A DNA stretch of 64,000 bases from an uncultured Actinomycetota bacterium (GTDB taxonomy: Bacteria; Actinomycetota; Acidimicrobiia; Spongiisociales; UBA4744): assembly GCA_963717135.1 (NCBI GenBank), contig CAVQVN010000009.1:632269-696268 (forward strand). The letters are read 5' to 3'. A model generated the notes under the pieces. That model was not told the DNA's origin. It ran no database searches and saw only the letters and a list, made by a program, of their open reading frames with translations. Positions 12,485 through 31,527 of the stretch are shown here, piece by piece; positions within the stretch are counted from its first letter, which is position 1, and each line of letters begins with the position of its first letter. Position numbers and translations under genes: made by a program.

Positions 12485-13461
12485 CGGCTCGCCCCCTCGA
12501 TGAGATCGGGATGGATACAGGCGGTAGTCCGGCCTTCCGAGATGGGTCGCAGCTCATGGTCGGCGCTGGTGCAGTCTTCCCGGGCGTAGTCGCAACGTGG
12601 CGCAAACCGGCATCCGGGAGGGAAGTCACGCGGATCGGGAGGATGTCCGTCGATGCCCTCCAGCCTCTCGATGCTGGCTTGGAACGACGGCACCGACTTC
12701 ATCAACGCCTCGGTATACGGGTGCTGCGGATATGAGAACACATCGTCGACCGGTCCGGTTTCCACGATCCGTCCGGCGTACATGATCGCCAGACGATCAC
12801 ACAGCTCACCGAGCACCGCCAGGTCGTGGCTGACGAAGATGATCGACATGCTGAGTTCGGCGCGGAGCTTCTGGAGCAAGCCGAGGATCTGATCCTGGAT
12901 GGAGACGTCGAGCGCCGTGGTCGGTTCGTCGCACAGCAGCAGCTTGGGTGTGGTCGACAGCGCGGTAGCGATCATCACTCGCTGCCGGAGTCCACCCGAC
13001 AATTGGTGAGGCCACATCTTCGCCCGGCGTTCCGGGCTGGGGATTCCGACCTGGCGCATCAGCTGGATGGCCCGCTCCCGGGCTTCCGACTTGCCGAGAC
13101 CCTCATGAACTCGAGGTCCTTCTGCGATCAGATCGCCCACCTTCATCGTCGGGTTCAATGCCGTCATGGGCTCCTGAAAGATGATCGAAATGCCGTGCCC
13201 GTGAACGTCGGCCGGCCGGTAGGGAATCGGTTCCTCCCGGCCGAGGGCGAAGCGGAGCTCTCCCCCGGTGGTGGCCGCCGGCGGAAGGATGCCGATGATC
13301 GCCTTGAGGGTCAGGCTCTTGCCCGATCCGGATTCGCCGGCGATGCCGAGCGCCTCGCCACGATCCAGCGAAATGGTAACGCCGTCGACCGGGGTGACCG
13401 TCCCGGCGCCGATCTCGAAAGAGACCTCCAAATCGGCTACTTCCAGGATGCGATCGGTCAT
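12481..13461 (-). CDS. ABC transporter ATP-binding protein (OppD/DppD-like)
   Basis: Walker A GESGSGKS, signature [10 protein letters not shown]-terminal OppD-type Cys-rich tail. Confidence 0.9.
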
Positions 13462-15277: not shown

Positions 15278-15314
15278 GCGATAGTCCTCCCCTCAAATTT
15301 GTAGTGTTCTTCCT

Positions 15315-16895: not shown

Positions 16896-16950
16896 GGTCC
16901 CGCTCTCCTCTCCAGGAGTAGTCCAGCTCGAATCCCACTCCAAAACCCAT

Positions 16951-16966
16951 CCTATCGAGGGATAGG
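16951..16966. promoter_or_regulatory. AmtR-box-like palindrome CCTATC-GAGG-GATAGG (copy 1) upstream of the ABC transporter operon
   Basis: Seen directly. 6+6 inverted repeat, 4-nt spacer. Confidence 0.6.
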
Positions 16967-16989: not shown

Positions 16990-17931
16990 TCAATCGATTT
17001 CCCTTTCCTCCTCGGTCAGCCGCCCGTATTGATCGGGGCGACGGGTATCGAACAATCCAAATGTCAACCAATCTCTGCGCTGGTCAAGATCCAGGTCGGC
17101 AACCAACACGGTCGGCTCAGCCCGGGGAGCCTCGACGAGGACCCGGCCGTAGGGATCGGAGACAAACGACGAGCCATAGAACGTGAGCGGTCCCTCGGTT
17201 CCGATCCGGTTCACTGCCACCATGTAGGTTCCGTTGGCCAGACCATTGGCGGTGATCATGTGCTTCCACAACGGCTGGGTGTCGAAATCACCGAGATCGG
17301 GTTCGGATCCGATGGCCGTTGGATAGACGAGAACCTCGGCGCCTTCGAGTGCATAGATGCGGGCCAGTTCTGGGTTCCACTGATCCCAGCAAGTCGGGAA
17401 GCCGAAGCGAGCGCCGGCCACTTCGACCACCGGGAATCCGGTGTTTCCGGCGGCGAAGTAGCGGTCCTCGTGGTAGTAGGGGAACTGGGGGATATGGACC
17501 TTGCGGGTGCGGGCTATCACCTCGCCTGCCGGATTCACGGCGATGGCCGTGTTGAAACCGGCACCATCCGGATCCTTCTCGTAGAGAGAAGCGTGAACCA
17601 CGGCGCCGGTTTCGGCGGCCATCAACCGGGCCAGTTCCGTGGTTGGACCGTCGCCGATCGTCTCCGCGTACGTCCGGGCCGCTTCTTGATCATCGGGGAC
17701 GACGGCGAAATATGGCGCCAGGGTCAGCTCCTGAAGGCAGATCACTTGTGCCCCTTGGTCTGCCGCCCTTCGCATGCCCTCACAGAGCGTCGCCTGATGC
17801 GCGGCGGGATCGGGATGCCAAGCGCATTGCACCGCTCCGATCCGCAACGAAGGTCGACCGCTGGGCGGTTCGACTCTCATGGGCGAGTCGAGCGGATCGT
17901 CGATCCGGGTGATCAATCTGAATTCGGTCAT
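16990..17931 (-). CDS. aguB: N-carbamoylputrescine amidase (carbon-nitrogen hydrolase / nitrilase superfamily)
   Basis: 313 aa. CN-hydrolase fold with E-K-C triad context (…GFPTCWDQW…). Translationally coupled to the agmatine deiminase gene upstream. Confidence 0.8.
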   Translation of the reverse strand: MTEFRLITRIDDPLDSPMRVEPPSGRPSLRIGAVQCAWHPDPAAHQATLCEGMRRAADQGAQVICLQELTLAPYFAVVPDDQEAARTYAETIGDGPTTELARLMAAETGAVVHASLYEKDPDGAGFNTAIAVNPAGEVIARTRKVHIPQFPYYHEDRYFAAGNTGFPVVEVAGARFGFPTCWDQWNPELARIYALEGAEVLVYPTAIGSEPDLGDFDTQPLWKHMITANGLANGTYMVAVNRIGTEGPLTFYGSSFVSDPYGRVLVEAPRAEPTVLVADLDLDQRRDWLTFGLFDTRRPDQYGRLTEEEREID

Positions 17932-18935
17932 GGGGTTCCTCCCGGCGCCGGGACTTGCATGGTGGTGCAGTGCAGACCTCCGCCTGCATATGAGACCATT
18001 TTTCCGGGGACGGCGACGACCTCCCGTTCGACGAAAGCCCGCTGCAGCACTTCGATGGCCGCGATGTCGGAGGCAAAGTCCCCGGTTCCAACGATCACGG
18101 CCCCGTTGATCAGGTAGATATTGGCGTAGGCCACTCCGACTTCGGTCCCGTCGAACGGTTCAGTCGGAAGTCGGGGCAATTCGATCACTTCGAGATTGCG
18201 GCCGGCGGCGTCGGTCTCCGCGTCGAGTGCTTGGCGATCTGCGGCCATCAGCTCGAAATCTGGATCATCCGGGTCCTCGCACGTCTGGAGAAGGACCACC
18301 CCGGGACGGACAAATGTGCACACTGCATCGACGTGTCCATCGGTGACGAAGTCGGCGGAGATACCCCACGGCAGCCAGACGACCTTGCGGATGCCGAGTC
18401 GATCGTTCAGCTCCTGCTCGATTTCCTCCCGCGACATGCCGGGATTGCGATTCGGATTGAGCAGGCACTGCTCGGTGGTGATCAGCGTGCCTTCTCCGTC
18501 GACGGTGATTGCCCCACCCTCGAGCACCATGTCCGACCCGATGCGCTGGATGCCGAGGTGATCGAGTATCGCCGCCGCGCTCGCCGCCGTCTGGTCGTAA
18601 GGTGGATAGCGTTCGCCCCATGCGTTGAAACGGAAATCGACGCCGGCCCGCGCCCCGTCATCGTCGACGACCACGATCGGACCTGAGTCGCGCACCCAGG
18701 CCGATTCATACGGGATCGCGACCAGCTCGATTCCCGAGGTCAGTGCCCGGCGGGCACCTTCGACGTCCGCCGGGTTCACCATCATGGTGAGCGGCTCGAA
18801 GGCGGCAATGGCATTGGCCAGCCCGGCGTAGGTTTCTCGGGCGGCTTCCAGGTGTGGCCCCCAGCTGGGGTGGACGGGCCAGGCCATCAACGAACGCTCG
18901 TGCAGTTCCCACTCGGCCGGCATGCGAAAGCTCAT
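17928..18935 (-). CDS. aguA: Agmatine deiminase
   Basis: Peptidyl-arginine-deiminase (Porphyromonas-type) fold. Start at ATG 18935 (MSFRMPAEWE…). Conserved blocks WVRDSGP, GGAITVDGEGT, GGGLHCTTMQ (C-terminal catalytic Cys). Confidence 0.85.
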   Translation of the reverse strand: MSFRMPAEWELHERSLMAWPVHPSWGPHLEAARETYAGLANAIAAFEPLTMMVNPADVEGARRALTSGIELVAIPYESAWVRDSGPIVVVDDDGARAGVDFRFNAWGERYPPYDQTAASAAAILDHLGIQRIGSDMVLEGGAITVDGEGTLITTEQCLLNPNRNPGMSREEIEQELNDRLGIRKVVWLPWGISADFVTDGHVDAVCTFVRPGVVLLQTCEDPDDPDFELMAADRQALDAETDAAGRNLEVIELPRLPTEPFDGTEVGVAYANIYLINGAVIVGTGDFASDIAAIEVLQRAFVEREVVAVPGKMVSYAGGGLHCTTMQVPAPGGTP

Positions 18936-20560
18936 CCTCGCCCTCCGGTTGGTCCTCCGTGCACGATCTCGCCACCGAGGACGGTCATCCACACGCCGAG
19001 GTGGCGAATCTCGCTCGGATCGACAGAAAAAATATCGCCGTCGACGACGGTCAGGTCGGCCAGCTTCCCGGGCTCGATCGAGCCGAGGCGATCCTCGGCG
19101 AAGATGGCGTGGGCGGCGTCGATGGTGTGGGCCCGCACCGCTTCCTCAACGGTCAGTGCCTGATCGGCCCCGATCGGGCGTCCCCCCATGGTCTTGCGAA
19201 GCACTGCGTTGGTGACCGTCTCCAGCGGCCGGTACGAGGTGACGTCGGAGTCGCTGCTCAGCACCACCTTGACTCCGGCATCGAGTTCGGCGCGCATCGG
19301 CTGCAACCGGTGGGCACGATCACCGAGCCGGGAGAGGAACTCGTCGCCCTGGTCGTGCAGGTAGTTGGGCTGGTTGATGGCGAAGACGCCGAGCCGGGCC
19401 ATGCGATCGATCTGATCTGGTCTCGGGTAGCCGCAGTGCTCGATGCGATGGCGGGGATCGGGACGAGGATGCGCCTCCATGGCATCCTCGAAGGCGTCGA
19501 GGACCGCCTCGATGGCCAGATCCCCCTGAGCATGGACGCCGACCTGCCACCCCCGGCTATGTGCCCTGTCGATCATGGCCCCCAGTTCAGCCGGCTCCCA
19601 GTACCGGAGGCCTGCGAACTCGCCGTCCTCGCCGTAGGGCTCAGAGAAGACCGCCGTGCCTCCGATCAACGAACCGTCCATGTAGAACTTCATCGGACCC
19701 AGCCACAGAAGGTCGTCGCCGAAGGGACCGGCCAGCCCGATCGAGCCGTACTCCTCGAGTTGATGGGACAGTGGCATGATCGCCACTCGTAGCCACCATT
19801 TCCCGCGGCGGCGGGCCTCGCGGTAACCGGCCATCTCGCGGCGCGTCACCTGGGCGTCGCACACGGTTGTCAGACCGGCTGCGAGGAAAGCCCGGCCGGC
19901 TCGCTCTATGGCGCCGACCAGTTCGTCGAGGCCGGCTTCCGTGTGGAAGTTGGGACCGTGAGAGCCGATGTCGACCACCACCGGTTGCACGAGACCCTGG
20001 GCGGCATCCTGGAACAACCCGGTAACGCGGCCCTCGCCGTCTCTCACGAGCCGGCCCCCTTTCGGATCCGGGGTAGCGTCGTTGAGGCCGGCGGTCTCGA
20101 GCGAGCGTGTGTTGACCAGGAGATAATGGCCCGAGACGTGGGAGATAGCGACCGGATGGTCCGTAGTGGCGCGGTCGAGATCCCACCGGGTTGGAGCCCT
20201 GTCGTACTTACCGTGGTCAAAGCCGAAGCCTCTGATCCACAGCCCCGGTGGCGTGTCGGCTGCCACGGCTGCCACTGCGGCGACGAGGTCCTCCACCGAA
20301 GCGACTGCCGGATAACGGGCGTCGATCGACGCCAGCGACTCGCCGGTCATCAGATAGTGGTTGTGGGCGTCGATGAAGCCGGGCACCATGGTCCGGCCGC
20401 CTAGATCGATCCTCGCCGCGTCCGGATAGGTTCTGAGAACCTCTTCATCGCCGCCCACCATCAGAATTCGTCCGGTCCGAACGGCCACCGCCTCGGCCCA
20501 TGACCCGGAACGATCGGCGGTATACACCGAGCCGCGGTGGAACACCCGCAGGTCGTTCAT
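18932..20560 (-). CDS. Metal-dependent amidohydrolase (amidohydrolase-3 family)
   Basis: Start placed at ATG 20560 (MNDLRVF…), which makes an ATGA overlap with the upstream aminotransferase stop. GFIDAHNHY motif. Confidence 0.8.
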   Translation of the reverse strand: MNDLRVFHRGSVYTADRSGSWAEAVAVRTGRILMVGGDEEVLRTYPDAARIDLGGRTMVPGFIDAHNHYLMTGESLASIDARYPAVASVEDLVAAVAAVAADTPPGLWIRGFGFDHGKYDRAPTRWDLDRATTDHPVAISHVSGHYLLVNTRSLETAGLNDATPDPKGGRLVRDGEGRVTGLFQDAAQGLVQPVVVDIGSHGPNFHTEAGLDELVGAIERAGRAFLAAGLTTVCDAQVTRREMAGYREARRRGKWWLRVAIMPLSHQLEEYGSIGLAGPFGDDLLWLGPMKFYMDGSLIGGTAVFSEPYGEDGEFAGLRYWEPAELGAMIDRAHSRGWQVGVHAQGDLAIEAVLDAFEDAMEAHPRPDPRHRIEHCGYPRPDQIDRMARLGVFAINQPNYLHDQGDEFLSRLGDRAHRLQPMRAELDAGVKVVLSSDSDVTSYRPLETVTNAVLRKTMGGRPIGADQALTVEEAVRAHTIDAAHAIFAEDRLGSIEPGKLADLTVVDGDIFSVDPSEIRHLGVWMTVLGGEIVHGGPTGGRG

Positions 20561-21951
20561 CGCATCATTTCCTCGGCCGCCGCATGGGCCAGCGGGATCG
20601 CTTGGCGCAAGGTGGCAACGATGAAGTCCACATCGTCGCGGGTGATGATGAGGGGAGGTGACATGATGTTGAGGTTCTCCACCGGTCGCACGATCAATCC
20701 GAGAGCGTCGCATTCGTTGGATACCCTTTTGCCGATATCTACCTCGTACGGGTAGGCCTCACCGGTCTCGGTATCACGCACGAACTCGATGCACACCATC
20801 AGATGGGATCCACGCACATCACCGACCATGGGCAACTCTCGCAGCGTCTCCAACTGCTCCATGAAGTACGGCCCGATGGCGCGGACGTGCTCGAGGATCC
20901 CTTCGCTCTCCAGGATCTCGATGTTCTTCAGAGCCGCGGCGCAGGACACCGGGTGCCCTCCGTAGGTGAATCCGAGGGGCAGATAGCCTGGTCCGCGACC
21001 CGACTCGGATATCACGTCAAATATCCTGTCCGAGAAGATCGTCGCTCCGAGCGGGAGGTAACCGGAGGTGAGGCCTTTGGCCGACGTGATTATGTCGGGT
21101 TGGATTCCGAACAGCTTCTCGGAGGCGAACCACTCTCCCAGTCGGCCGAAGCCGGTTACCACTTCGTCAGATACATAGATGATGTCGTTGGCTCGGCAGA
21201 ACTCCCAGATCCGCTTGAGGTAGTTGTCGGGTGGAGGAATCACGCCGCCGGCTCCCATTATCGGCTCGGCGAAAAAGGCCGATACGTACCCGGCTCCGCC
21301 GAGTTCCTCTACCTTGGCCTCGAACTCGGCAACCAGTTGATCGGCGAAGGCTTTCTCAGATAACCCTTTTCCGTACCGGTAGATGTTCGGCGAACTCAGA
21401 TGGTGCACATTGTCGAGGAACTCGAACTCGTCGATCCTGTCACCGGGCTTACCGCCGATGGAAACGGCCGCGTAGGTCTGACCGTGATAGGCATCGACCC
21501 GCGAGATCACATGTCGTTTCTCGGGCTTGCCGCGTACAGCTTGGTAGAACTGGGCGATGCGGTAGGCCAGGTCGTTGGCGGTCGACCCGCCGGTGCTGAA
21601 GAACACATGGTTCAGATCGCCCGGAGCCAACTCGGCGAGTTTGGTGGCCAGGTCGGCAGCCGGAATGTGGGTCATGTCCACGAAAGGATTCGAGTAAGCC
21701 AGTCGCCGGACTTGATCGGCAATGGCTTCCACCATGTCTTCACGACCCAGACCAATGTTCGTGCACCACAATCCACCGACTGCATCGACGTATCGCTTGC
21801 CGTTCGTGTCGGTGATGTAGGCACCTGCGCCGGAAGCGATCGGAAGGGCGCCCTCCTCGGCGAAGGTGTCGAACACCTGATAGGGATGGACGTGATGGCG
21901 TTTGTCGCGTTCGACCACGGCCGGGGTTTCGGTGCTCATGTAGTTGGTCAT
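20557..21951 (-). CDS. Class-III (ω-amino acid / diamine) aminotransferase
   Basis: 464 aa. PLP fold-type I class III blocks (…GGLWCTNIGLG…, DEVVTGFGRLGEWF, …SAKGLTSGYLPLGA…). Confidence 0.9.
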   Translation of the reverse strand: MTNYMSTETPAVVERDKRHHVHPYQVFDTFAEEGALPIASGAGAYITDTNGKRYVDAVGGLWCTNIGLGREDMVEAIADQVRRLAYSNPFVDMTHIPAADLATKLAELAPGDLNHVFFSTGGSTANDLAYRIAQFYQAVRGKPEKRHVISRVDAYHGQTYAAVSIGGKPGDRIDEFEFLDNVHHLSSPNIYRYGKGLSEKAFADQLVAEFEAKVEELGGAGYVSAFFAEPIMGAGGVIPPPDNYLKRIWEFCRANDIIYVSDEVVTGFGRLGEWFASEKLFGIQPDIITSAKGLTSGYLPLGATIFSDRIFDVISESGRGPGYLPLGFTYGGHPVSCAAALKNIEILESEGILEHVRAIGPYFMEQLETLRELPMVGDVRGSHLMVCIEFVRDTETGEAYPYEVDIGKRVSNECDALGLIVRPVENLNIMSPPLIITRDDVDFIVATLRQAIPLAHAAAEEMMR

Positions 21952-21983
21952 GTCCGGGTCCTCTCCCTACAGGTTGATGTTCT

Positions 21984-23117
21984 TCAGAATCCGGGGATCT
22001 GTTTTGGGAAGTAGTCCTCCATGTCACCCTCTCGTTCGATGTCGAGCGTCGCGCAATGCAGAGCCCCTCCAAACATCGAAACGTCGATGAAGTCGACCGG
22101 AACGACGTCGAAGCCCAGCCCGTCCAGCTGGTCCATGAAGGCCACCTCGTTCGACTCCACGCAGACCGTGTTGGGATCGAGCGAGAGCACGTTGTAGCCG
22201 AGCGACTCGTGACACATCGAGTAGGGCGGCTGCTTGGCCCCCGACACCGGAGCGCCTTCGATGATCTCCCAGTCGTTCATTCGGAGCAACTCGTGGAACT
22301 CGGGTATCAACGAGGGGTATTTCGGGTTGACGACTATCTGGCCGGGGCGCAGGGGCACGATGGTCACATCGATGTGCCATGGCTGAACCGTCCCACCGAA
22401 CCCGAGAACGTGGACTCGGTAGCCGCGCGACTCAAAGTGGCGTTTGAACCAGTCGATACCGGCACGATTGCTCGGCGCCGAATGCTGGATGAAGATGTCC
22501 TTGCCGAACCGCATGGCGTCCGCCGTGTCGAACAGTGGTTCCTTCTCGGTTAGGTGGAACTCAAAGCGCTCCATGCGTCGGGTTAGCTCCGCCTCGGTCC
22601 ACTTGTTGAAGAAGTCTTCCCAGTAGCCGGGAACGTACGACTCGTCCGACAGCCGGGGCTTGGGTGCCGCCTCCCACAAGAAGTTCGGATCCTCCTTGAA
22701 GTACTGCTCCAGCAGCGGTTTGTAGGCCAGGAACTCGAACCAACGAGCTCGCTGAGACATGGTCGCCTCGAGGATCTCGTGGCCGTAGGCCATGAGAATG
22801 TCGCGGGGGGGCATGGTCCCAAACATGTGGCTGCACTCCCAATCGGGCGTGCGGACGTATTGGCGGTCGTCCATCGAAGTCGGCCGGTCTACCCTGATCC
22901 CCCGGTTGGCGAGCATCGCGGCGAAACTCTCCATTTGCTCCGTCGCCTTCTCCACGTACGTGTCGGGAATAGGCGTCCACTCTCCCGGCTTGAGCCCGAG
23001 TTCGGGAAGATCGAGAACCATCCCCGCTTCGGGTGCCCCCACCATCCGGCTGTCGATTCGACCAACAATGACATGCTTGAGAGGGTCCCACTCATTCCAC
23101 GAGTTGACCTTCGTCAT
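21984..23117 (-). CDS. Amidinotransferase (glycine/inosamine amidinotransferase family), paralog 1
   Basis: 377 aa. Collinear with the AGAT/StrB family as recalled from memory (NEWDPL…VIVGR, PRDIL…GNEILEATM, WEAAPKP, FDAADA…RFGKDIFIQHS, HIDVT, GGALHCATLD with the catalytic Cys near the C-terminus). First gene of a 5-gene coupled operon. Confidence 0.85.
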   Translation of the reverse strand: MTKVNSWNEWDPLKHVIVGRIDSRMVGAPEAGMVLDLPELGLKPGEWTPIPDTYVEKATEQMESFAAMLANRGIRVDRPTSMDDRQYVRTPDWECSHMFGTMPPRDILMAYGHEILEATMSQRARWFEFLAYKPLLEQYFKEDPNFLWEAAPKPRLSDESYVPGYWEDFFNKWTEAELTRRMERFEFHLTEKEPLFDTADAMRFGKDIFIQHSAPSNRAGIDWFKRHFESRGYRVHVLGFGGTVQPWHIDVTIVPLRPGQIVVNPKYPSLIPEFHELLRMNDWEIIEGAPVSGAKQPPYSMCHESLGYNVLSLDPNTVCVESNEVAFMDQLDGLGFDVVPVDFIDVSMFGGALHCATLDIEREGDMEDYFPKQIPGF

Positions 23118-23153
23118 CGGTCACCTTCCGGCAGAGGAGCGATTACCGGACTA

Positions 23154-23169
23154 GCCTATCAAATGATAG
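23154..23169. promoter_or_regulatory. AmtR-box-like palindrome CCTATC-AAAT-GATAGA (copy 2) between amidinotransferase-1 operon and divergent TetR/AmtR-like gene
   Basis: Seen directly. 37 bp upstream of the amidinotransferase-1 start. Confidence 0.6.
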
Positions 23170-23283
23170 ATAGACTGTCGAAGAGGAACCCGAAATGCCC
23201 TTCATGAGCCCGACCGTGGGGCTTTGGCAAAGATATGCCGAGTTTCGGCAGGAGCCATCCGACCGGTCAGATTTGGAGTGTCC

Positions 23284-23937
23284 ATGACGAAGGCAACCGC
23301 CGGCGATGAGCCCGGGACTCGTGAACGCATCCTGGTCGAAGCTTCGCGCCTCCTGTCGCTCAACGGATACCGTGCCACAACGACCCGAGAAATCGCAGCC
23401 GCCGTGGGCATCAGTCAGCCGTCACTGTTCTTCCACTTCCCGACCAAGCGAGCGATCGTTGAGGAGTTGTATCGGTCCGATCTCATCCCGGCCTTGCGAG
23501 GCTTCGAGAACGTCGTAGCGAGCCAAGGCACACCGGGCGCCAAACTATTCGCGATGATCGCCGGTGAAGTGGATCGGGCCATGGGTTCCCCCTTCGACAT
23601 GCGTGCCTATATCAGCTTTGAGGCTCTCAATGACCCCGAGTTGGAGGAATTCCGCGATCTCCTACAGCAGTTCGATGACCTGACCGGCGAGTTGATTCGC
23701 GCCGGCCAGAAGTCCGGTCAGTTCATCAAGGGAGACGCGTGGTTGGCCCAACAGATGGTGAGCGGGTTCCTGGCCCGATCGAACCTGTTCCTCACTACAG
23801 ATGAGAGTCGTCGACCGTTCCACCCGGAAGAATCGGCCTCGATGATCTTGCGAGCTCTTCTCGCGGATCCAGAAACGCTGACCACTGTGAGAGCGGAGGC
23901 GGTCCATCTGATCACGGCCTACAACGCCGGCTTGTAG
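23284..23937 (+). CDS. TetR-family transcriptional regulator, AmtR-like
   Basis: 217 aa from ATG 23284. HTH region TTTREIAAAVGISQPSLFFHFPTKRAIV resembles C. glutamicum AmtR as I recall it (…QIADAVGIRQASLYYHFPSK…). An AmtR-type box lies in its own upstream region. Confidence 0.75.
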   Translation: MTKATAGDEPGTRERILVEASRLLSLNGYRATTTREIAAAVGISQPSLFFHFPTKRAIVEELYRSDLIPALRGFENVVASQGTPGAKLFAMIAGEVDRAMGSPFDMRAYISFEALNDPELEEFRDLLQQFDDLTGELIRAGQKSGQFIKGDAWLAQQMVSGFLARSNLFLTTDESRRPFHPEESASMILRALLADPETLTTVRAEAVHLITAYNAGL

Positions 23938-23953
23938 CCTGGTTGCGGGTAGC

Positions 23954-23971
23954 GCGACCTATCAAGAACAG
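23954..23971. promoter_or_regulatory. Motif CGACCTATCAAGAACA (half-site-like) ~50 bp upstream of amidase start; near-identical copy at 56391-56408
   Basis: Seen directly. Function unknown. Confidence 0.3.
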
Positions 23972-24015
23972 CTAGCCAAGCGCACATAGACAGAATCGAG
24001 AGAACTGGAGTGCTC

Positions 24016-25446
24016 ATGTCCGACGAACTCAGTCACCTCAGTGCGACTGAAGCACTCGCTTTGTTCCGCAGCCGGGAGCTTGCGCCGCTAGAACTCCTCG
24101 AAGCGGTGATGGCCCGTGCCCACGCTACCGAGCCGCTCGTCAATGCCTTCATGGATACCTACTTCGATGAGGCTCGCCAACAGGCAGAAGCAGCGGGTGA
24201 GGCGTACGCAACGGGAACGGCCAGGCCTTTGGAAGGTCTGCCGATCGCCGCCAAGGACGAACCCCGGGTCGACGGGAGACGGTGGACTCAGGGTTCCCTG
24301 CTCTTCGAGAACGAGATTGCCTCTGGGACCGACCCGATCACCGAGCGGGTTCTCGATGCCGGCGGCATCATCCACGCCCACACGACGACTCCGGAATTCT
24401 CAATGGCAATCGTTACGTGGACCTATCTCCACGGAATCACCAGGTCCCCCTGGAACCCGGCCATGACGTCGGGCGGTTCATCCGGAGGATCGGGGGCCAG
24501 CCTGGCATCCGGGTCGTCACTGCTGGCGACCGGGAGTGATATCGGCGGATCGATCAGAATCCCCGCCTCCATGAATGGAGTGGTCGGGTTCAAGCCACCC
24601 TGGGGTCGGGTCCCCGAATTCTGGCCGTGGAACCGTGAGCCGTACGCCGCTTCCGGGCCAATGGGGCGGACGGTAAAAGACGTCATCTTGTTTGAGAACG
24701 CCCTCTCCGGACCGCTGCCCGGCGACATGTTCTCATCGCCGCCACTCGACGTGCCGACCGATTTGCCCCCCGTCGGCGGAATGCGAATCGCTCTGAGCGC
24801 CGATCTTGGCTACTTCAACCCGGACGGTGAAATCGTCAACGCTCTGGAGTCGACCGCCGCCCAACTGCGCGAACTCGGGGCGGTGGTTGATCCGGTTGAC
24901 TTGGCATGGACCGATCAAGCCGAGGACACGGCATTGACGCACCTCTCGTTCCAATCCCGCCCAATCCTGCGCGGGTCGGTTCCCGACGAGTCAGATGACC
25001 GGTTGACTCCCTACATCAGGGAATTCCTCCAGCGGCCTCCCGTGTCCGTAGAGGAGTGGATGGAGAGCTGGCGCTACGCCGATGAGATGTACGAAGAACT
25101 GCAAAGCAAAGTGTTCCTGGCCGGCTACGACGCGTTGATCTGCCCGACACTGGTTACCACCTCCATCCCCGCCGATCTCGGTCATCCGGACTCAGGTTCG
25201 ACGAGCGATCTCGGCGAGCAACTGAAGCTCGTCATGACGTACCCGTTCAACATCCTTGGGCGGCTTCCGGTAGTCAACGTTCCCATCGGACTCGCTCCGA
25301 GCACCGGGGTTCCGATCGGGATGCAGATCGTCGGTCCGGTCGATGCCGATGCCATTCCCTTCCGGGTGGCTCTGGGACTCGAGGCAGAGTCCGGCAATCT
25401 CTTCGAGCATCATCGGCCGAGCCTGGGTCAACCGATCAGGAACTGA
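24016..25446 (+). CDS. Amidase (amidase-signature family)
   Basis: GGSSGGSGA signature with Ser-cisSer-Lys context (…KDEPRVDG…). ATG 24016 preceded by GGAG. Confidence 0.85.
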   Translation: MSDELSHLSATEALALFRSRELAPLELLEAVMARAHATEPLVNAFMDTYFDEARQQAEAAGEAYATGTARPLEGLPIAAKDEPRVDGRRWTQGSLLFENEIASGTDPITERVLDAGGIIHAHTTTPEFSMAIVTWTYLHGITRSPWNPAMTSGGSSGGSGASLASGSSLLATGSDIGGSIRIPASMNGVVGFKPPWGRVPEFWPWNREPYAASGPMGRTVKDVILFENALSGPLPGDMFSSPPLDVPTDLPPVGGMRIALSADLGYFNPDGEIVNALESTAAQLRELGAVVDPVDLAWTDQAEDTALTHLSFQSRPILRGSVPDESDDRLTPYIREFLQRPPVSVEEWMESWRYADEMYEELQSKVFLAGYDALICPTLVTTSIPADLGHPDSGSTSDLGEQLKLVMTYPFNILGRLPVVNVPIGLAPSTGVPIGMQIVGPVDADAIPFRVALGLEAESGNLFEHHRPSLGQPIRN

Positions 25447-26419
25447 TTCCCGCGGCCCGTTCGGCGATCCCGTTGAGGATCTCGAGGACTATCCGGTTGG
25501 CGAGAAACGAAGTGATCGCCCCCGGCCCGTCGTAGGGAGGAGATACCTCGACGATGTCGGCGCCCACGATGTTCAACTCTCGAGCCATCCTCCGGACCGA
25601 ATCGAGAATCTGCCGGCTGGTGAGACCGCCCGGTTCGGGGGTGCCCGTGCCGGGTGCCATTCCTGGATCCACGACGTCGATGTCGATCGACAGGAACACG
25701 CCGGTCGCTCCCTCGCCGGCGTAGGCGACCGCCTCGTCGACAACCGGCTTCAGCCCTCGATCTTCGATCTCGGTCATCAGGTAGCCACGCATGCCCTGGT
25801 CGCGCATCCAGGCCACGGTGTCGGGACCCGGCCAATAGCCCCGCAGCCCGATCTGCACGAACCGGTGTCCGGGCACCGCCCCCGATTCGATCAGCCTGCG
25901 CATCGGTGTTCCATGCCCGTAGAGCGATCCGTACCCGGTCATTTCGCCGGTATCCGGGTGGGCATCGAAATGAACGAGCGCCACTTCACCAAATCCAAAC
26001 ACTCGGGCAACTCCGGTGGCATTCGCATAGGTGATCGTGTGATCACCGCCGAGCACGATCGGGATCGAACCCGCCGCGGCCACACGCTCAACGGCGGAGG
26101 TGATGCGTTCCAGATCTCCTTCGATGTCCCCGGGATGCATCTCAACGTCGCCGATGTCGACTACCCCCTCTAGGGCATTGAGCCCGGTCGGGAGATGAGG
26201 CCGGTAGCCGTCGGCAGCGATGTAGTCGCTCTCACGGATGGCTTTCGGCCCGAACCGAGCACCCGGCCGATAGGAGGTGCCCCAGTCAAACGGCGCCCCC
26301 ATGATGACAACCCGGGCTCCCTGGAAGTCCTCGAGGGTGGCAGCCGGAACCCCGGCGAAAGAACTCGCAGCCGCAAAGGCGTGCAGGCGGCCCGACTCGA
26401 ATGGCATTCCAGCATTCAT
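25436..26419 (-). CDS. Ureohydrolase (arginase/agmatinase/guanidino-acid hydrolase family)
   Basis: 327 aa. Mn-binding motifs GGDHTIT, DAHPD, SIDIDVVDP. Confidence 0.85.
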   Translation of the reverse strand: MNAGMPFESGRLHAFAAASSFAGVPAATLEDFQGARVVIMGAPFDWGTSYRPGARFGPKAIRESDYIAADGYRPHLPTGLNALEGVVDIGDVEMHPGDIEGDLERITSAVERVAAAGSIPIVLGGDHTITYANATGVARVFGFGEVALVHFDAHPDTGEMTGYGSLYGHGTPMRRLIESGAVPGHRFVQIGLRGYWPGPDTVAWMRDQGMRGYLMTEIEDRGLKPVVDEAVAYAGEGATGVFLSIDIDVVDPGMAPGTGTPEPGGLTSRQILDSVRRMARELNIVGADIVEVSPPYDGPGAITSFLANRIVLEILNGIAERAAGISS

Positions 26420-26481
26420 CGACTTCTCCGCGGCATCTCCTGTGGCTCAGTCCCGCGTGAATCGAGCGCGAGCCACGATCT

Positions 26482-27603
26482 TCAGCAAGTCGCCAGAGCT
26501 TCCAGGGGCTCGACGTATTGATAGCCGAGTGCTCGAGCAACGTGCTCTTCGGTGACCTTGCCCTTGCAGACGTTGAGCCCTCCCAGCAAATGCTCATCGT
26601 CGAGCATCGCCTGCTTGGCTCCCTTGTCGGCCAGCGCCAGCGTAAACGGCAAGGTGGCGTTGTTGAGGGCATACGTTGACGTGCGCGGCACTGCTCCCGG
26701 CATGTTGGCAACGCAGTAGTGCACGATGTCGTCGACCACGTAGGTGGGATCTTCATGCGTGGTCGGGCGGGATGTTTCGAAGCAGCCGCCCTGATCGATG
26801 GCCACGTCGACCACGACTGAACCGGGTCGCATACGTTTGATCATGTCGGCGGTGACCAACCGGGGCGCCCGGTCACCCTTGACGAGGACGGCTCCCACCA
26901 CCAGATCGGCATCGAGCACCCACTCTTCCAGTGCCGAGGCGGTCGAGTAGACGGTCTGCAGAGCGGTGCCAAAGCGACGGGCGAGCCGATCGAGGACGGC
27001 GATGTTGTTGTCGAGGACTATGACTTCGGCTCCCAACCCGGCCGCCATCTGGATGGCATGCTCACCAACTACCCCACCGCCGATCACCACGACATTGGCG
27101 GCCTTGACTCCCGGCACTCCACCCAGCAGCAACCCGGATCCCCCGCTGGGGGCTTCCAGGCAATGCGCCCCGGCCTGGATCGACATACGACCGGCCACTT
27201 GCGACATCGGGGCCAACAGGGGCAAACCGCCCTCACGGTCGGTGACGGTCTCATAGGCGATACAGGTGGATCCACTCTCGACGAGTTCCCTCGTCTGATC
27301 GGGGTCGGGAGCAAGATGAAGATAGGTGAAGAGCACCTGATCTTCACCGAGCTGGGCCCGTTCCACAGCCTGCGGTTCCTTGACCTTGACTACCATCTCG
27401 GCCTGGTCCCAGACTTCTGCCGACGATGGAGCGATCCGGGCTCCGGCGGCGACGTATGCTTCGTCGGCCGCGCCGATCCCGATACCTGCACCTGATTCGA
27501 CCAGCACCTGGTGCCCGTGGGCAACGAGCTCTCTGACACTGGCCGGCGTCAGACCGACGCGTCGTTCCGCTTTCTTAATCTCTTTCGGGGCACCAACCAG
27601 CAT
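26482..27603 (-). CDS. ald: Alanine dehydrogenase
   Basis: Start reassigned to ATG 27603 (MLVGAPKEIK…) with a GGAGGT RBS. AlaDH/PNT N- and C-domains, NAD motif VIGGGVVG. Confidence 0.9.
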   Translation of the reverse strand: MLVGAPKEIKKAERRVGLTPASVRELVAHGHQVLVESGAGIGIGAADEAYVAAGARIAPSSAEVWDQAEMVVKVKEPQAVERAQLGEDQVLFTYLHLAPDPDQTRELVESGSTCIAYETVTDREGGLPLLAPMSQVAGRMSIQAGAHCLEAPSGGSGLLLGGVPGVKAANVVVIGGGVVGEHAIQMAAGLGAEVIVLDNNIAVLDRLARRFGTALQTVYSTASALEEWVLDADLVVGAVLVKGDRAPRLVTADMIKRMRPGSVVVDVAIDQGGCFETSRPTTHEDPTYVVDDIVHYCVANMPGAVPRTSTYALNNATLPFTLALADKGAKQAMLDDEHLLGGLNVCKGKVTEEHVARALGYQYVEPLEALATC

Positions 27604-27628
27604 TTCGCTATACCTCCGTTGCGAGCCG

Positions 27629-28843
27629 TCAAGCGGCTGCCAATACGACGCGAATAGACAAGAGCAGCTTATCGATCTGCTCATCGGTGATGACCAGAGG
27701 CGGGCACATTGACATATGGGGCGGAATCGGTCGAATGATCACACCTTCTTTCAGAAGGGCATCGCGGGCGGCGAGCACGTTCACACCGTCGGGCAGCGTG
27801 ATCGCCCACACGGCCCCCTCTCCCCGAACATCGACCACCAGGCCGTCGTCGCGCAATGCGAACAAGCCGGCCGACAACCGTCGGCCGATCTCGGTCGCCC
27901 GGGCCAGCAAGCCCTCGCGCTCCTGAATCTCGATGCACTTGAGGGCGGCGATACACCCGAGCGGATGACCCGAATACGTGTAGCCCGTCCTCAGCACGAA
28001 TCCCTCGTTCGCCTCCAGACCCTCCAGTACCGACGGTCCCACGATGACTCCCGACAACGGCACGTAGCCGGAGGTAACTGCCTTGGCGAAGGTGATCATG
28101 TCCGGGGTGACTCCGTAGAACTGGCTGCCAAACCATTCCCCGAGTCTCCCGAAACCGGTGATAACTTCGTCGAAAATGAGGAAGGCGCCGTACGTGTCGC
28201 ACAGATCGCGGAGGTGTGACAGGTATCCCTCCGGCGGCGGCCACACTCCCCCCGCCCCCTGGACCGGCTCGGTGATGACCGCGGCGATTTCGTCGCCATG
28301 CTCGGCGAAGATCCTCTTCATCGCTTCGTCGTCATCGGCCACCACATTGATGATGCCCGGGACCAATGGACCGAAACCGTCGCGGTTCGGGGCGATACCT
28401 TGCACCGAGGTTCCACCGTAGTTGGTGCCGTGATAGCCCCGCTCCCGGCTGACGATGACGTGCTTGTGGGGATTGCCTGCCTCACGGTGGGCAATCCGGG
28501 CCAGCTTCATCGCAGTGTCGACTGCCTCGGATCCGGAGGAGCCAAAGAACACCCGGGCTCGCTCAAAGGGCGACAGCTCGGCGATCTTGGCGGCCAACTC
28601 CTCGCTGGGCGGGTTCGTGAACGGGTCAAACGTGTGGTACGCCCCCAGTTTCCCGGCCTGTTCGGCTATCGCTTGGGCGATTTCTTCTCTTCCGTAGCCG
28701 ACGTTGGCATACCACAGAGAGCCCATACCGTCGATGTACTCGTTGCCCTGATCGTCGAAAATCAGGGCCCCCCGACCGCCGACGATCGAGATGAACTCGT
28801 CCTTGCGGGGCGGCGTGAATGGGTGCAAAAACGAGCTGGGCAT
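27629..28843 (-). CDS. Class-III aminotransferase, paralog 2
   Basis: Start at ATG 28843 (MPSSFLHPFTPP…) with an AGGAGG RBS. The listed ORF's extra 37 aa are upstream read-through. DEVITGFGRLGEWF block. Confidence 0.85.
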   Translation of the reverse strand: MPSSFLHPFTPPRKDEFISIVGGRGALIFDDQGNEYIDGMGSLWYANVGYGREEIAQAIAEQAGKLGAYHTFDPFTNPPSEELAAKIAELSPFERARVFFGSSGSEAVDTAMKLARIAHREAGNPHKHVIVSRERGYHGTNYGGTSVQGIAPNRDGFGPLVPGIINVVADDDEAMKRIFAEHGDEIAAVITEPVQGAGGVWPPPEGYLSHLRDLCDTYGAFLIFDEVITGFGRLGEWFGSQFYGVTPDMITFAKAVTSGYVPLSGVIVGPSVLEGLEANEGFVLRTGYTYSGHPLGCIAALKCIEIQEREGLLARATEIGRRLSAGLFALRDDGLVVDVRGEGAVWAITLPDGVNVLAARDALLKEGVIIRPIPPHMSMCPPLVITDEQIDKLLLSIRVVLAAA

Positions 28844-28866
28844 GGCCACTGCCTCCTGGTTGTTTT

Positions 28867-28882
28867 CCCTATCGGGTGATAG
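28867..28882. promoter_or_regulatory. AmtR-box-like palindrome CCTATC-GGGT-GATAGG (copy 3) in divergent aminotransferase-2 / amidinotransferase-2 promoter region
   Basis: Seen directly. 24 bp from the aminotransferase-2 start codon and 66 bp from the amidinotransferase-2 start. Confidence 0.6.
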
Positions 28883-28947
28883 GTAGTATATCGCCCACGA
28901 CCGCGCCGGACAACGCGGAATCCCCTGGACAAGAGTGAGGAGACGCT

Positions 28948-30081
28948 GTGCCAAAGATCGTCAACTCGTGGAACGAATGGAGCCGTCTCAAGCGAGTCAT
29001 TGTCGGGAGAGCCGACGGGACGATGGTGCAGGCGCCCGAGCCTGCCACGGTGCGCGATTGGCCTCAGTGGGGATTCCCCAAGGGGACCTACGGTCGGTTG
29101 CCGCAGGACATGGAAGACTCAGCCAACGAGCAACTGGACAATTTTGCGGCACTCCTGGAATCTCACGGGGTGGTCGTCGATCGGCCCGAACCGCTTGATT
29201 TCTCCCAGAAGGTCTCCACCCCCGACTGGAAGCAGGATTCGATGTTCGGAGTCATGCCGCCGCGTGACCTGCTACTCACGGTCGGCAATGAGATCCTCGA
29301 AGCGACGATGTCGCAGCGTTCTCGATGGTTCGAGTACCTGGCCTACCGACCTCTTCTCCAGAGCTACTTCGAGCAAGATCCGGAGTTCCGATGGGAAGCC
29401 GCCCCCAAGCCTCGCCTGACCGACGCCTCCTATGTCGACGGCATGGATTTCTGGGAGTACGCCGAGTCCTTCAGCGACGAGGAACAGATCGAACGGTTCA
29501 CCAAGAAGAAGCAGTGGAACCTAACGGAACACGAGCCGCTGTTCGACGCCGCCGACGTTGGGCGATTCGGGAGAGATCTCTTCGTGCAGCGATCCACCGC
29601 TACCAACGGCGCCGGGATCGATTGGCTGCGGCGCCACTACCCGGAGCACCGAATCCACGAGGTCCTCTTCTACGAAGCCCATCCGATGCACATCGACGCC
29701 ACATTCATCCCGCTGCGGCCGGGCCTGGCTTTGAGCAACCGGCAACGCGTTCCGATGACCGACGAAATGGTCAAGCTGTTCGAGATGAACGACTGGGAGA
29801 TAGTGCCGTGTGCGGAGCCGGCCCTCTCGGAGAAGCCGCCACTCTGCTTCTGCAGCGTGTGGCTTTCGATGAACACCCTGTTGCTCGACGAAAACACCAT
29901 ATTCGTGGAGGAATCCGAAAAGGCCCAGCAGCAGCAGTTCTACGAACTCGGTTTCGAGGTGATCCCCGTCCCCTTCTGGGCGGTCGGACCTTTCGGTGGA
30001 GGCTTGCATTGCGCCACCGCCGACGTCTATCGCGAGGGGAAGATGGAGGATTACTTCCCGAAGCAGATTCCCGGTTATTGA
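28948..30081 (+). CDS. Amidinotransferase (glycine/inosamine amidinotransferase family), paralog 2
   Basis: 377 aa, roughly 55-60% identical by eye to paralog 1 over the full length. Same C-terminal …GGGLHCATADV…EDYFPKQIPGY. Confidence 0.85.
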   Translation: MPKIVNSWNEWSRLKRVIVGRADGTMVQAPEPATVRDWPQWGFPKGTYGRLPQDMEDSANEQLDNFAALLESHGVVVDRPEPLDFSQKVSTPDWKQDSMFGVMPPRDLLLTVGNEILEATMSQRSRWFEYLAYRPLLQSYFEQDPEFRWEAAPKPRLTDASYVDGMDFWEYAESFSDEEQIERFTKKKQWNLTEHEPLFDAADVGRFGRDLFVQRSTATNGAGIDWLRRHYPEHRIHEVLFYEAHPMHIDATFIPLRPGLALSNRQRVPMTDEMVKLFEMNDWEIVPCAEPALSEKPPLCFCSVWLSMNTLLLDENTIFVEESEKAQQQQFYELGFEVIPVPFWAVGPFGGGLHCATADVYREGKMEDYFPKQIPGY

Positions 30082-30122: not shown

Positions 30123-31457
30123 ATGAGTAGACGCAAGGTAATCATCATCGGAGCCGCCGGCCGCGACTTCCACAATTTCAACACTCGCTATCGCGACGAC
30201 GAGTCGGTCGAAGTCGTGGCTTTCACCGCCGAGCAGATCCCGGGAATCGAGGGCCGCACGTACCCCGCCGAGCTGGCCGGACCGCTCTATCCGGGCGGCA
30301 TCCGGATCTACGCCGAAGAGGAGCTACCCCGCCTCATCGATGAGCTGGACGTGGATGAGTGTGCGTTCTCCTACAGCGACGTCTCCTACCAGCACGTGAT
30401 GGGGGTCTCGGCCATCGTTCAAGCCGCCGGAGCGTCCTTCACGCTGCTCGGACCCGGCGATACTCAGATCAAGAGCATCAAACCGGTGATCTCGGTATGC
30501 GCCATCCGGACCGGCTCGGGCAAGTCCCAGACCTCGCGCAAAGTCGTCGAGACGCTGATGGCCAAGGGCCTCAAGGTGGTCGCCATCCGCCATCCCATGC
30601 CCTACGGAGATCTCTCTGCCCAGAAGGTTCAACGCTTCGCCGAGCTGGCCGACCTCGAGAAGCATGATTGCACCATCGAGGAGATGGAGGAGTACGAGCC
30701 GCACATCGTGCGCGGCAACGTCATCTACGCGGGTGTGGACTACGAAGCCATCATCCGGGCTGCCGAGACCGACCCGGATGGCTGCGATGTCATAGTGTGG
30801 GACGGCGGAAACAACGACTTCTCGTTTTACCAAGCCGACCTGGCCATCACCGTCGTCGATCCGCACCGACCCGGCCATGAGCTTCGCTACTACCCCGGTG
30901 AGGTCAACCTCCGCACCGCCGATGTCGTCGTGATCAACAAGATCGATTCGGCCGATCTGGCCGGAATCGAAACCGTGCGCCGCAACATCGCCAAGGTCAA
31001 CCCAACCGCCAGGGTGATCGATGCTGCGTCAACGCTGCGACTCGAAGACCCCTCGGTGGTAGCCGGCCGGCGGGTGCTGGCGATCGAAGACGGGCCGACT
31101 CTGACTCACGGAGAGATGAAGATCGGCGCCGCGGTGGTGGCCGCCACCAAGTACGGAGCGACCGAATTCGTTGATCCCCGCCCGTTCCTGGTCGGGAAGC
31201 TGAAGGAGACCTTCGAGATCTACCCCAACATCGGAACGATCCTGCCGGCCATGGGCTACGGCGAAGAGCAGCTTCGTGACCTCGAAGCAACCATCAACGC
31301 CGCCGATTGTGACGCCGTCGTGATCGGCACTCCGATCGATCTTGCCCGGATTGTGCACATCGAAAAGCCCCACACGCGCGTGTTCTACGATCTGCAGGAA
31401 ATTGGCGAGCCGACTCTGACCGGTGTGCTCGAGGACTTCGTCGCCAAACTGGGATAA
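30123..31457 (+). CDS. P-loop-containing protein resembling the cyclic 2,3-diphosphoglycerate synthetase (cPGS) family (assignment tentative)
   Basis: 444 aa from ATG 30123 (AGGAGGG RBS). N-terminal KVIIIGAAGRDFHNFN Rossmann-like segment and P-loop-like AIRTGSGKSQTS. The family is recalled from memory, not verified. Confidence 0.55.
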   Translation: MSRRKVIIIGAAGRDFHNFNTRYRDDESVEVVAFTAEQIPGIEGRTYPAELAGPLYPGGIRIYAEEELPRLIDELDVDECAFSYSDVSYQHVMGVSAIVQAAGASFTLLGPGDTQIKSIKPVISVCAIRTGSGKSQTSRKVVETLMAKGLKVVAIRHPMPYGDLSAQKVQRFAELADLEKHDCTIEEMEEYEPHIVRGNVIYAGVDYEAIIRAAETDPDGCDVIVWDGGNNDFSFYQADLAITVVDPHRPGHELRYYPGEVNLRTADVVVINKIDSADLAGIETVRRNIAKVNPTARVIDAASTLRLEDPSVVAGRRVLAIEDGPTLTHGEMKIGAAVVAATKYGATEFVDPRPFLVGKLKETFEIYPNIGTILPAMGYGEEQLRDLEATINAADCDAVVIGTPIDLARIVHIEKPHTRVFYDLQEIGEPTLTGVLEDFVAKLG

Positions 31458-31527
31458 CGTGAACCAGGTTGGTCGGTGGACCGTCGCCGGCCAACCTCTT
31501 GGTCGAGACAACAGATGGAGGGGTGAC

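Follow-up and report, generated by a model that had tools for sequence, protein, structure and literature searches.

A candidate catabolic amidino shuttle linking amidinotransferases with an arginine-synthetase-like protein in an Acidimicrobiia genome

Amidinotransferases are regarded as purely biosynthetic enzymes, serving the formation of creatine, antibiotics and toxins. The characterised members of the AGAT family (human AGAT, or GATM, and AmtA, CyrA, SxtG, StrB1 and HsvA) make guanidino products, and guanidine metabolism as reviewed in 2025 still gives the family a biosynthetic role. Here, we describe an island of genes in a 64,000-nucleotide stretch of DNA (“the window”; contig CAVQVN010000009.1, positions 632,269 to 696,268) from an uncultured bacterium of the Acidimicrobiia. 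The island contains two AGAT-family genes, AGAT1 and AGAT2, and, following AGAT2, a gene for a homologue of arginine synthetase (ArcE). The two proteins share with the characterised enzymes full-length homology and five catalytic or guanidino-binding residues. They differ in their setting, which looks catabolic and includes as partner a putative arginine-consuming, ATP-forming enzyme, and AGAT1 falls into a large type (in human AGAT numbering, W302 with W, Y or L at 322) that has no characterised member.

Arginine synthetase, which conserves ATP and is specific for arginine, was discovered in 2024 and takes the place of arginine deiminase (PMC11032458). It catalyses the reaction arginine + ADP + Pi <-> citrulline + NH3 + ATP and, together with ornithine carbamoyltransferase (OTC, encoded by arcB) and carbamate kinase (CK, encoded by arcC), constitutes the arginine synthetase pathway, as described for Thermococcus kodakarensis TK2200 (Michimori et al., PMC11032458). 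The homologue in the window is 44–46% identical to proteins from archaeal genera with arcE, and in related loci its gene occurs together with OTC and CK genes. The substrate of the described pathway is free arginine, whereas here an amidinotransferase gene directly precedes the arcE homologue. This implies that arginine would be made in situ from other guanidino compounds, with ornithine as a recycled carrier.

Other described systems share part of this logic. The arginine and agmatine deiminase pathways (ArcABC; AguA with putrescine carbamoyltransferase and carbamate kinase) likewise lead from a guanidino to a ureido compound, then to carbamoyl phosphate and ATP, and the genes around AGAT1 (module 1) include agmatine-deiminase-like and carbamoyl-amidase-like enzymes, both below the aguA and aguB cut-offs. 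The island differs in that entry would be by group transfer, with no deiminase of the arginine deiminase (ADI) type for the primary substrate. In the GbuA/GpuA route of Pseudomonas, a ureohydrolase acts before an omega-amino acid transaminase, and the genes around AGAT2 (module 2) similarly combine a GpuA/GbuA-like ureohydrolase and a pyruvate-type transaminase in one operon. However, the Pseudomonas route releases urea and yields no ATP, whereas the island adds amidinotransferases and ArcE. Pairs of a pyruvate-dependent omega-transaminase and alanine dehydrogenase occur, for example, in taurine or beta-alanine catabolism. The module 2 aminotransferase (AT2) and alanine dehydrogenase are likewise adjacent and co-conserved, but here the amine would come from de-amidination and the aldehyde would apparently pass to a tungsten-type aldehyde:ferredoxin oxidoreductase (AFOR). 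All of the component families (AGAT, ArcE, OTC and CK, omega-transaminase with alanine dehydrogenase, AFOR, TetR) are known. What appears to be new is the combination, in which an arginine-synthetase-type pathway would be entered through an amidinotransferase; no literature linking an amidinotransferase with arginine synthetase, and none on catabolic amidinotransferases, was found.

The amidinotransferases and their ArcE-family partner

For the gene map, open reading frames (ORFs) were listed, genes were called by codon usage, and the products were then searched against Pfam, NCBIfam and the PDB (Table 1). The window has a G+C content of ~63%, and the genome loci closest to it come from metagenome-assembled genomes (MAGs) of Acidimicrobiia; the proteins described here have 100% identical counterparts on a 1.58-Mb Acidimicrobiia contig. 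In the PDB comparison, AGAT1 and AGAT2 align end to end with human AGAT (1jdw; 204 bits, E 3e-59, and 267 bits, E 2e-78, respectively) and their matches to SxtG, HsvA and StrB1 are likewise full-length. The one Pfam match, to ADI, is below threshold, so the family assignment rests on the PDB comparison. Transferases are matched at E 1e-59 to 1e-78, against E ~1e-4 for any deiminase or DDAH. Both proteins keep the residues aligned with Asp170, Asp254, His303, Asp305 and Cys407 of human AGAT, as do all 84 AGAT homologues from related loci; the exceptions, among 120 database matches, are P0061 (Gly at the Asp170 position) and P0071 (Glu at the Asp254 position). By these alignments, AGAT1 and AGAT2 are true AGAT-family members, as an initial annotation of the window had proposed, and have an intact Asp-His-Cys triad.

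Could the island be a natural-product locus? An AGAT with an aminotransferase is the classic pairing in guanidino natural-product pathways, and SxtG and StrB1 are among the PDB matches, both of which speak for a locus like those for streptidine, cylindrospermopsin, saxitoxin or phaseolotoxin. Scores against SxtG, HsvA and StrB1 are, however, no better than those against human AGAT, and the two proteins are orthologues of none of these three. The neighbours are importers and hydrolases, and no polyketide synthase (PKS), nonribosomal peptide synthetase (NRPS), sugar-modifying, scaffold or tailoring gene is present among the scanned genes of the 64-kb window. With neither scaffold nor tailoring enzymes encoded by the scanned genes, this reading was rejected, and we consider it highly improbable.

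The two proteins differ at positions that may line the substrate pocket. From papers on the human AGAT structure, we take Met302, Arg322 and Ser355 to be pocket residues of members that use arginine and ornithine; the presumed role of Arg322 could not be confirmed in the literature and serves as a lead only. Among the pocket positions, Met302 and Asn300 were checked in PMC4887976. AGAT2 retains M302, R322 and S355 (residue signature DDEAHPMHDRCSC), and its flap resembles the D-M-H-P-M of AmtA, an Arg:Lys amidinotransferase. AGAT1 carries the substitutions M302W, R322Y and S355H; its type is defined by Trp302 and an aromatic or aliphatic residue replacing Arg322, and the exact W302/Y322 signature occurs in Acidimicrobiia only. 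Across the family, positions 302 and 322 co-vary (Met, Ile, Val or Leu302 with Arg322; Trp302 usually with Trp, Tyr, Leu or Phe322), which defines two pocket types.

AGAT1 and AGAT2 are 51% identical and fall into separate clades of a neighbour-joining tree of 84 homologues, and the aminotransferases beside them, AT1 and AT2, are 36% identical. A recent tandem duplication of the module is thereby ruled out. The modules, which the initial annotation had called duplicated, are on this divergence analogous. Orthologues of AGAT1 (70–90% identical) occur in five related loci (L001–L005), every one beside AT1, and the AGAT1-AT1 pair has been seen only in these Acidimicrobiia; most of the bacterial homologues fetched are nearer to AGAT2. 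The initial annotation had also called bacterial members of the family rare, a view that does not hold: a cut-off of E<=1e-20 yields 2149 homologues in the protein collection, and family members are present in at least 563 species-level genomes. The carriers include Pelagibacteraceae (SAR11), Planktomarina, Hyphomicrobiales, Streptomyces, Anaerolineae, Desulfobacterales, Aminicenantes and Holophagae. NCBI records label the whole clade “serine/threonine protein kinase”, a systematic mis-annotation that affects many MAGs, while the JGI label is “glycine amidinotransferase”.

The gene that follows AGAT2 was overlooked in the initial annotation and is the most conserved partner of the AGAT genes. 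Its product has a P-loop, TGSGKS, at residues 130–135, of which all but Ser132 is invariant in 19 homologues. It gives weak Pfam matches to cobW and LpxK and a weak match to cyclic 2,3-diphosphoglycerate synthetase (cDPGS; 9sxb, E 1e-3). Relatives are annotated “predicted GTPase” or “cDPG synthase”, and distant representatives “GTPase” or “hypothetical”. Full-length identity is 46% to a homologue from Hyperthermus butylicus (E 7e-140) and 44% to one from Pyrodictium occultum; both genera are listed as holding arcE (PMC11032458). ArcE itself has been described as a P-loop protein with similarity to LpxK and cDPGS-type enzymes and with “GTPase” annotations (PMC11032458), traits that the protein in the window fits. 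It very likely belongs to the ArcE family, and by homology it would be specific for arginine. An ORF of 234 aa on the opposite strand (30324–31028, minus) had been a candidate for a conserved unknown partner and was rejected: its translation is low-complexity antisense, and the real gene is the plus-strand one. Strong conservation of the sense gene is the sole cause of the antisense ORF's tblastn matches in many loci, and the ORF is a trap for automatic ORF lists.

How widespread is this gene pair? Context scans by tblastn took in 79 related loci with AGAT homologues (the loci with L-numbers). An ArcE-like gene follows the AGAT gene on the same strand in 12 of the 79, spread over at least five phyla: Actinomycetota (Acidimicrobiia, Thermoleophilia), Chloroflexota (Chloroflexia/Anaerolineales), Desulfobacterota (Deltaproteobacteria/Desulfobacterales), Acidobacteriota (Holophagae, Aminicenantes) and Spirochaetes. 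The encoded ArcE-like proteins are 62–89% identical to that in the window, and the linkage spans three AGAT clades. An OTC gene lies near the AGAT gene in seven loci, six of which also have the ArcE-like gene, and both OTCs scored, those of L010 and L050, pass the NCBIfam cut-off of 515 as true ornithine carbamoyltransferases (552 and 570 bits). Carbamate kinase genes occur in three loci; that of L050, the one scored, qualifies as the arcC equivalog with 381 bits (cut-off 358). ArcE-like genes are associated with arcB or arcC in L007, L010, L017, L040, L047, L050 and L088. Some loci also have genes for amine handling or transport: a γ-aminobutyrate (GABA) transaminase equivalog directly follows AGAT and OTC in L011, two class-III aminotransferases lie downstream in L017, and in L050 the upstream side holds an Opp-type importer, while a GntR regulator and a ureohydrolase homologue are found downstream. 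A further Anaerolineae contig has an ArcE-like gene (76% identical), an OTC gene and an aminotransferase gene within 7 kb of an AGAT1-like gene. For a gene family with roughly one member in each genome, the number of loci, out of 79, in which chance would bring it to within a few genes of AGAT is, by a rough estimate, well below one. Moreover, no AGAT gene was found beside distant, mostly archaeal ArcE homologues; hence, the linkage is specific and is no general neighbourhood effect.

This conserved linkage bears on a second alternative, in which the island is an ordinary hydrolytic cluster for the catabolism of arginine, agmatine or guanidino acids. The AGATs would then be same-fold hydrolases, or accessory enzymes that balance the arginine and ornithine pools, and ArcE would serve arginine catabolism, for which it suffices alone. 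Such a cluster would make sense of the complete agmatine-to-putrescine pair and the GbuA/GpuA-like ureohydrolase, and the fold superfamily does hold hydrolases as well as transferases, with the weak ADI match as the sole Pfam result. The AGATs are nevertheless far closer to transferases than to deiminases or DDAH, the deiminase and amidase-type enzymes stay below the aguA and aguB equivalog cut-offs, and an AGAT2 acting as arginine deiminase would make ArcE redundant. If AGAT2 instead released urea, there would be no reason for an AGAT-ArcE-OTC-CK operon to be conserved in five phyla. A mainly hydrolytic island with accessory AGATs is, in our estimate, unlikely.

A candidate route for guanidino compounds and its direction

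What might the island do? The metabolite shared by AGAT and ArcE is arginine, so the simplest reading is that AGAT uses ornithine as acceptor. We lean towards viewing the island as a substrate-inducible catabolic amidino shuttle for one or more guanidino compounds. First, a guanidino compound would enter the cell through either the Opp-type ABC system or the MFS carrier and, if amide-linked, might be freed by the amidase or the Amidohydro_3 enzymes. Second, an AGAT-family enzyme would shift the amidino group, via a Cys thiouronium intermediate and with no hydrolysis, to a small carrier amine. In module 2, the carrier would be ornithine, such that AGAT2 converts a guanidino compound and ornithine to the free amine and arginine. 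Third, the ArcE homologue would convert arginine, ADP and Pi to citrulline, NH3 and ATP, and ornithine would be regenerated by OTC, with or without CK, the OTC and CK steps giving a second ATP. The OTC and CK genes share the operon in related anaerobes; in this organism they would lie outside the window, if present. Fourth, the freed amine would be transaminated to pyruvate by AT2, with alanine dehydrogenase regenerating pyruvate and releasing NH3, and the resulting aldehyde would be oxidised by the AFOR encoded after ArcE to an acid, which the co-regulated CoA-transferase could activate. Module 1, in which the AGAT1 pocket is remodelled, may be a parallel route for another substrate. Its carrier pair could be putrescine and agmatine, with the deiminase and carbamoyl-amidase regenerating putrescine, but this assignment is weak because the deiminase and the CN hydrolase fall below the aguA and aguB cut-offs and because AGATs of the W302 type occur with ArcE and OTC. 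As to substrates, our leading guess is omega-guanidino acids, 4-guanidinobutyrate among them; the GABA transaminase of L011 and the island's own GpuA/GbuA-like ureohydrolase both point in this direction.

The initial annotation had already raised the idea of amidino transfer to ornithine, giving arginine and then ammonia. The ArcE homologue after AGAT2 supports it, as does the recurrence across phyla of the AGAT-ArcE pair with true OTC and CK. A broader generalisation is possible, and we put it forward tentatively: several bacterial phyla may possess a general amidino shuttle, in which AGATs load amidino groups from diverse guanidino compounds onto recycled ornithine (or possibly, for module 1, putrescine), and ArcE, OTC and CK then yield, per amidino group, 2 NH3, CO2 and up to 2 ATP by substrate-level phosphorylation. 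If so, guanidino acids, agmatine-like amines and invertebrate phosphagens would be energy-yielding substrates for anaerobes, a fermentative use of guanidino compounds that is so far undescribed, and such compounds would be nitrogen sources for marine Actinomycetota. Ornithine would be a catalytic carrier, with a logic like that of the urea cycle run catabolically. The large bacterial AGAT family would gain a physiological role, and the thousands of proteins that NCBI calls protein kinases would gain a testable function.

Several features favour the catabolic direction. The importer and the MFS carrier share the operator described below; several hydrolases in the island are irreversible; the pyruvate-type transaminases sit with alanine dehydrogenase; and control appears to be of the TetR-repressor type, while related operons include an arcC-type carbamate kinase. 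The catabolic setting seen in the initial annotation is borne out by the importers, hydrolases, alanine dehydrogenase and TetR operator, with PKS and NRPS genes absent from those scanned. In the opposite direction, AFOR, aminotransferase and alanine dehydrogenase would aminate an acid or aldehyde, and AGAT would guanidinylate the amine, taking the amidino group from arginine; the ArcE homologue and OTC would regenerate arginine from ornithine, and the product would be a guanidino osmolyte, a phosphagen-like compound or a signal. Each core step could run this way. The characterised bacterial relatives (AmtA, CyrA, SxtG, StrB1, HsvA) are all biosynthetic, homologues in actinomycetes sit with HAD and methyltransferase genes in what looks like a biosynthetic setting, and ArcE works near equilibrium and supports arginine synthesis in vivo (PMC11032458). 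Against synthesis, the regulon contains a binding-protein-dependent importer and an MFS carrier and has neither exporter nor tailoring enzymes, and related operons have the arcC-type kinase as partner and importers upstream. Furthermore, the product would be exposed to destruction by the island's deiminase, carbamoyl-amidase and amidase, its guanidino-acid-type ureohydrolase and its two amidohydrolases. Osmolyte synthesis, which the initial annotation had offered as its alternative, is a poor fit with the importers and irreversible hydrolases, and we consider the biosynthetic direction as a whole to be quite unlikely.

The catabolic shuttle has weak points of its own. The core enzymes (AGAT, ArcE, transaminase, alanine dehydrogenase, AFOR) all catalyse reversible steps, which means that the direction is argued from context and is not fixed by gene content alone. 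Neither OTC nor CK is encoded in the 64-kb window or beside the Acidimicrobiia modules, which leaves the ornithine cycle incomplete here as seen. The ureohydrolase in the AT2 operon could remove the amidino group directly, making AGAT2 partly redundant unless the substrates differ. AGAT1 has no residues equivalent to R322 and S355, and W302-type AGATs are also found with ArcE and OTC (L040, L088). Lastly, ArcE membership runs along a chain of homology through the Hyperthermus and Pyrodictium proteins, and the AlphaFold model of the ArcE-like protein, built from a shallow alignment, is poor (pLDDT 62).

Operator and neighbouring genes

The promoter box CTAT-N6-ATAG that the initial annotation saw in both modules is the palindrome CTATC-N4-GATAG. 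The window contains five copies against 0.10 expected, and none of 100 shuffles reaches five. All five are intergenic or 5'-proximal and lie in promoter regions, three of them beyond those first seen, and the palindrome recurs in the same promoters of related Acidimicrobiia loci (L001–L005, L035 and L037). The predicted regulon is thus larger than was first described, extending to the MFS carrier, the ABC importer and the CoA-transferase. The TetR protein encoded divergently from AGAT1, in an arrangement also found in L001 and L002, is the presumed binder, and the island is probably repressed through the palindrome. A promoter-like -35/-10 for the AT2 operon stands immediately upstream of the copy between AT2 and AGAT2; a promoter scan found no sigma-70-like match in the AGAT1/TetR spacer. 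The start of AT2 is placed at the ATG at 28843 because a longer ORF, from a TTG at 28954, would swallow the operator and the start of AGAT2. A search for guanidine and other riboswitches matched only a tRNA.

Table 1. Genes and operator copies of the island in the 64-kb window
Feature	Coordinates	Strand	Evidence and remarks
MFS transporter	7902–9143	-	Pfam MFS_1 E 8e-39; operator at 5' end
Operator copy CTATCACCTGATAG	9144–9157		5' end of MFS transporter gene
Second Amidohydro_3 amidohydrolase	9873–11585	-	Pfam PF07969 E 2e-75; end of transporter operon
Opp/Dpp-type ABC importer	11498–16943	-	Pfam SBP_bac_5, BPD_transp_1, ABC_tran, oligo_HPY
Importer parts	Solute-binding protein 15315–16943; permeases 14336–15277, 13458–~14393; ATPases 12481–13485, 11498–12553	-	
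Operator copy CTATCGAGGGATAG	16952–16965		Directly upstream of solute-binding protein gene
N-carbamoylputrescine-amidase-like CN hydrolase	16990–17931	-	Pfam PF00795 E 5e-48
Agmatine-deiminase-like enzyme (PAD_porph family)	17928–18992	-	Pfam PF04371 E 1e-107
Amidohydro_3 metal-dependent amidohydrolase	18932–20713	-	Pfam PF07969 E 6e-101; true start probably below 20557
AT1, class-III pyruvate-type omega-aminotransferase	20557–21951	-	Pfam Aminotran_3 E 6e-84
AGAT1, AGAT-family amidinotransferase	21984–23117	-	377 aa; W302/Y322 type
Operator copy CTATCAAATGATAG	23156–23169		AGAT1/TetR spacer; same place in L001, L002, L003, L004
TetR-family regulator	23224–23937	+	Pfam TetR_N E 2e-15; divergent from AGAT1, palindrome between
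Amidase-signature amidase	24010–25446	+	Pfam PF01425 E 2e-80
Ureohydrolase, guanidino-acid hydrolase group	25436–26419	-	Pfam Arginase E 1e-85
Alanine dehydrogenase	26482–27684	-	NCBIfam TIGR00518 506 bits, cut-off 392
AT2, class-III pyruvate-type omega-aminotransferase	27629–28843	-	Pfam Aminotran_3 E 2e-90
Operator copy CTATCGGGTGATAG	28869–28882		AT2/AGAT2 spacer; conserved in L002, L035, L037
AGAT2, canonical-type AGAT-family amidinotransferase	28948–30081	+	377 aa; flap A-H-P-M
ArcE-like P-loop protein, arginine synthetase family (very likely)	30123–31457	+	444 aa; 41 bp after AGAT2; ribosome-binding site caggaggg
Divergent tungsten-type AFOR	31459–33339	+	Pfam AFOR_N, AFOR_C E ~1e-39
Family III CoA-transferase	40466–41803	+	Pfam CoA_transf_3 E 4e-119; stop-to-stop ORF, start probably after box
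Operator copy CTATCATTCGATAG	40597–40610		Upstream of CoA-transferase

A class-III aminotransferase does lie beside each AGAT, as first annotated, and the catabolic neighbours named at that time were confirmed by Pfam, NCBIfam and PDB searches, except that the aguA and aguB cut-offs were not reached. In module 1, the operon order is AGAT1-AT1-Amidohydro_3-deiminase-CN hydrolase, with AGAT1 first. AT1 scores 674 bits against NCBIfam PRK07036 (cut-off 618), and the named matches among its nearest PDB entries are putrescine and polyamine:pyruvate transaminases. The Amidohydro_3 enzyme of this operon has no NCBIfam equivalog, the deiminase-like enzyme scores 305 bits against an aguA cut-off of 381.8, and the CN hydrolase 237 against an aguB cut-off of 410. 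The same ABC transporter stands beside the AGAT1 modules of L001 and L002. The amidase reaches no NCBIfam cut-off; a homologue adjoins AGAT1 in L003. The CoA-transferase is likewise below the cut-offs of the NCBIfam succinate--glutarate and oxalate CoA-transferase models, and in L004 and L005 homologues of it (63–74% identity) are found upstream of the AT1/AGAT1 pair, at a distance of 0.1–0.9 kb.

In module 2, the best PDB matches of AT2 include putrescine, polyamine and beta-alanine:pyruvate transaminases. Orthologues of AT2 occur in L002, L035 and L037, and in the first two of these alanine dehydrogenase is conserved beside it. The nearest PDB entries to the ureohydrolase are 3-guanidinopropionase (3nip, 193 bits), proclavaminate amidinohydrolase (1gq6, 192) and guanidinobutyrase (3nio, 174), with 7esr also among them. 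All of these entries score above the best agmatinase (142) and the best arginase (120), which places the enzyme closer to the GbuA/GpuA group than to SpeB-type agmatinases or arginases. The AFOR gene starts 2 nt past the ArcE stop, a position conserved in L002 and L035, and its product matches PDB 1aor and 1b25 at E 2e-26. A tungsten/molybdenum block adjoins the island (33377–35551, 38505–40187 and 42109–44201, all minus strand). It encodes a fusion of MoeA with a periplasmic-binding-protein-like domain, a further AFOR paralogue, and a binding protein with a TOBE-domain ABC ATPase, a content consistent with tungsten-dependent aldehyde oxidation in an Acidimicrobiia genome.

Other settings of AGAT-family genes

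AGAT homologues in the related loci also occur in settings unlike that of the window. For example, in Anaerolineae metagenome contigs (L088, L089, L090; L088 ~4200–16300), an AGAT1-like gene is directly preceded by genes for a corrinoid protein and two MttB-family methyltransferases, and in L088 it has ArcE-like, OTC and class-III aminotransferase genes within 7 kb. This set may serve to demethylate creatine or another N-methyl guanidino compound anaerobically, ahead of the amidino transfer. In Pelagibacteraceae (L059–L079; e.g., L076 7856–12153), a conserved block of EamA transporter, creatinase-like M24 protein, AGAT and threonine-aldolase-like pyridoxal-phosphate enzyme occurs without ArcE, which suggests a different, aerobic use of the AGAT family in the most abundant marine bacteria. 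Several genomes have more than one AGAT paralogue (two or three), arranged in tandem or separated by a few kb, beside ABC importers (L006 8725–12342, L018, L060, L091), and in L091 an AGAT gene lies between a PotD-type importer and a three-subunit molybdoenzyme of the xanthine dehydrogenase type. In actinomycete loci (L022–L078, from Streptomyces, Kitasatospora and others; e.g., L024 11121–15084), AGAT is followed by a HAD hydrolase, an S-adenosylmethionine-dependent methyltransferase and conserved proteins without Pfam matches, a setting that, unlike the island described here, looks biosynthetic.

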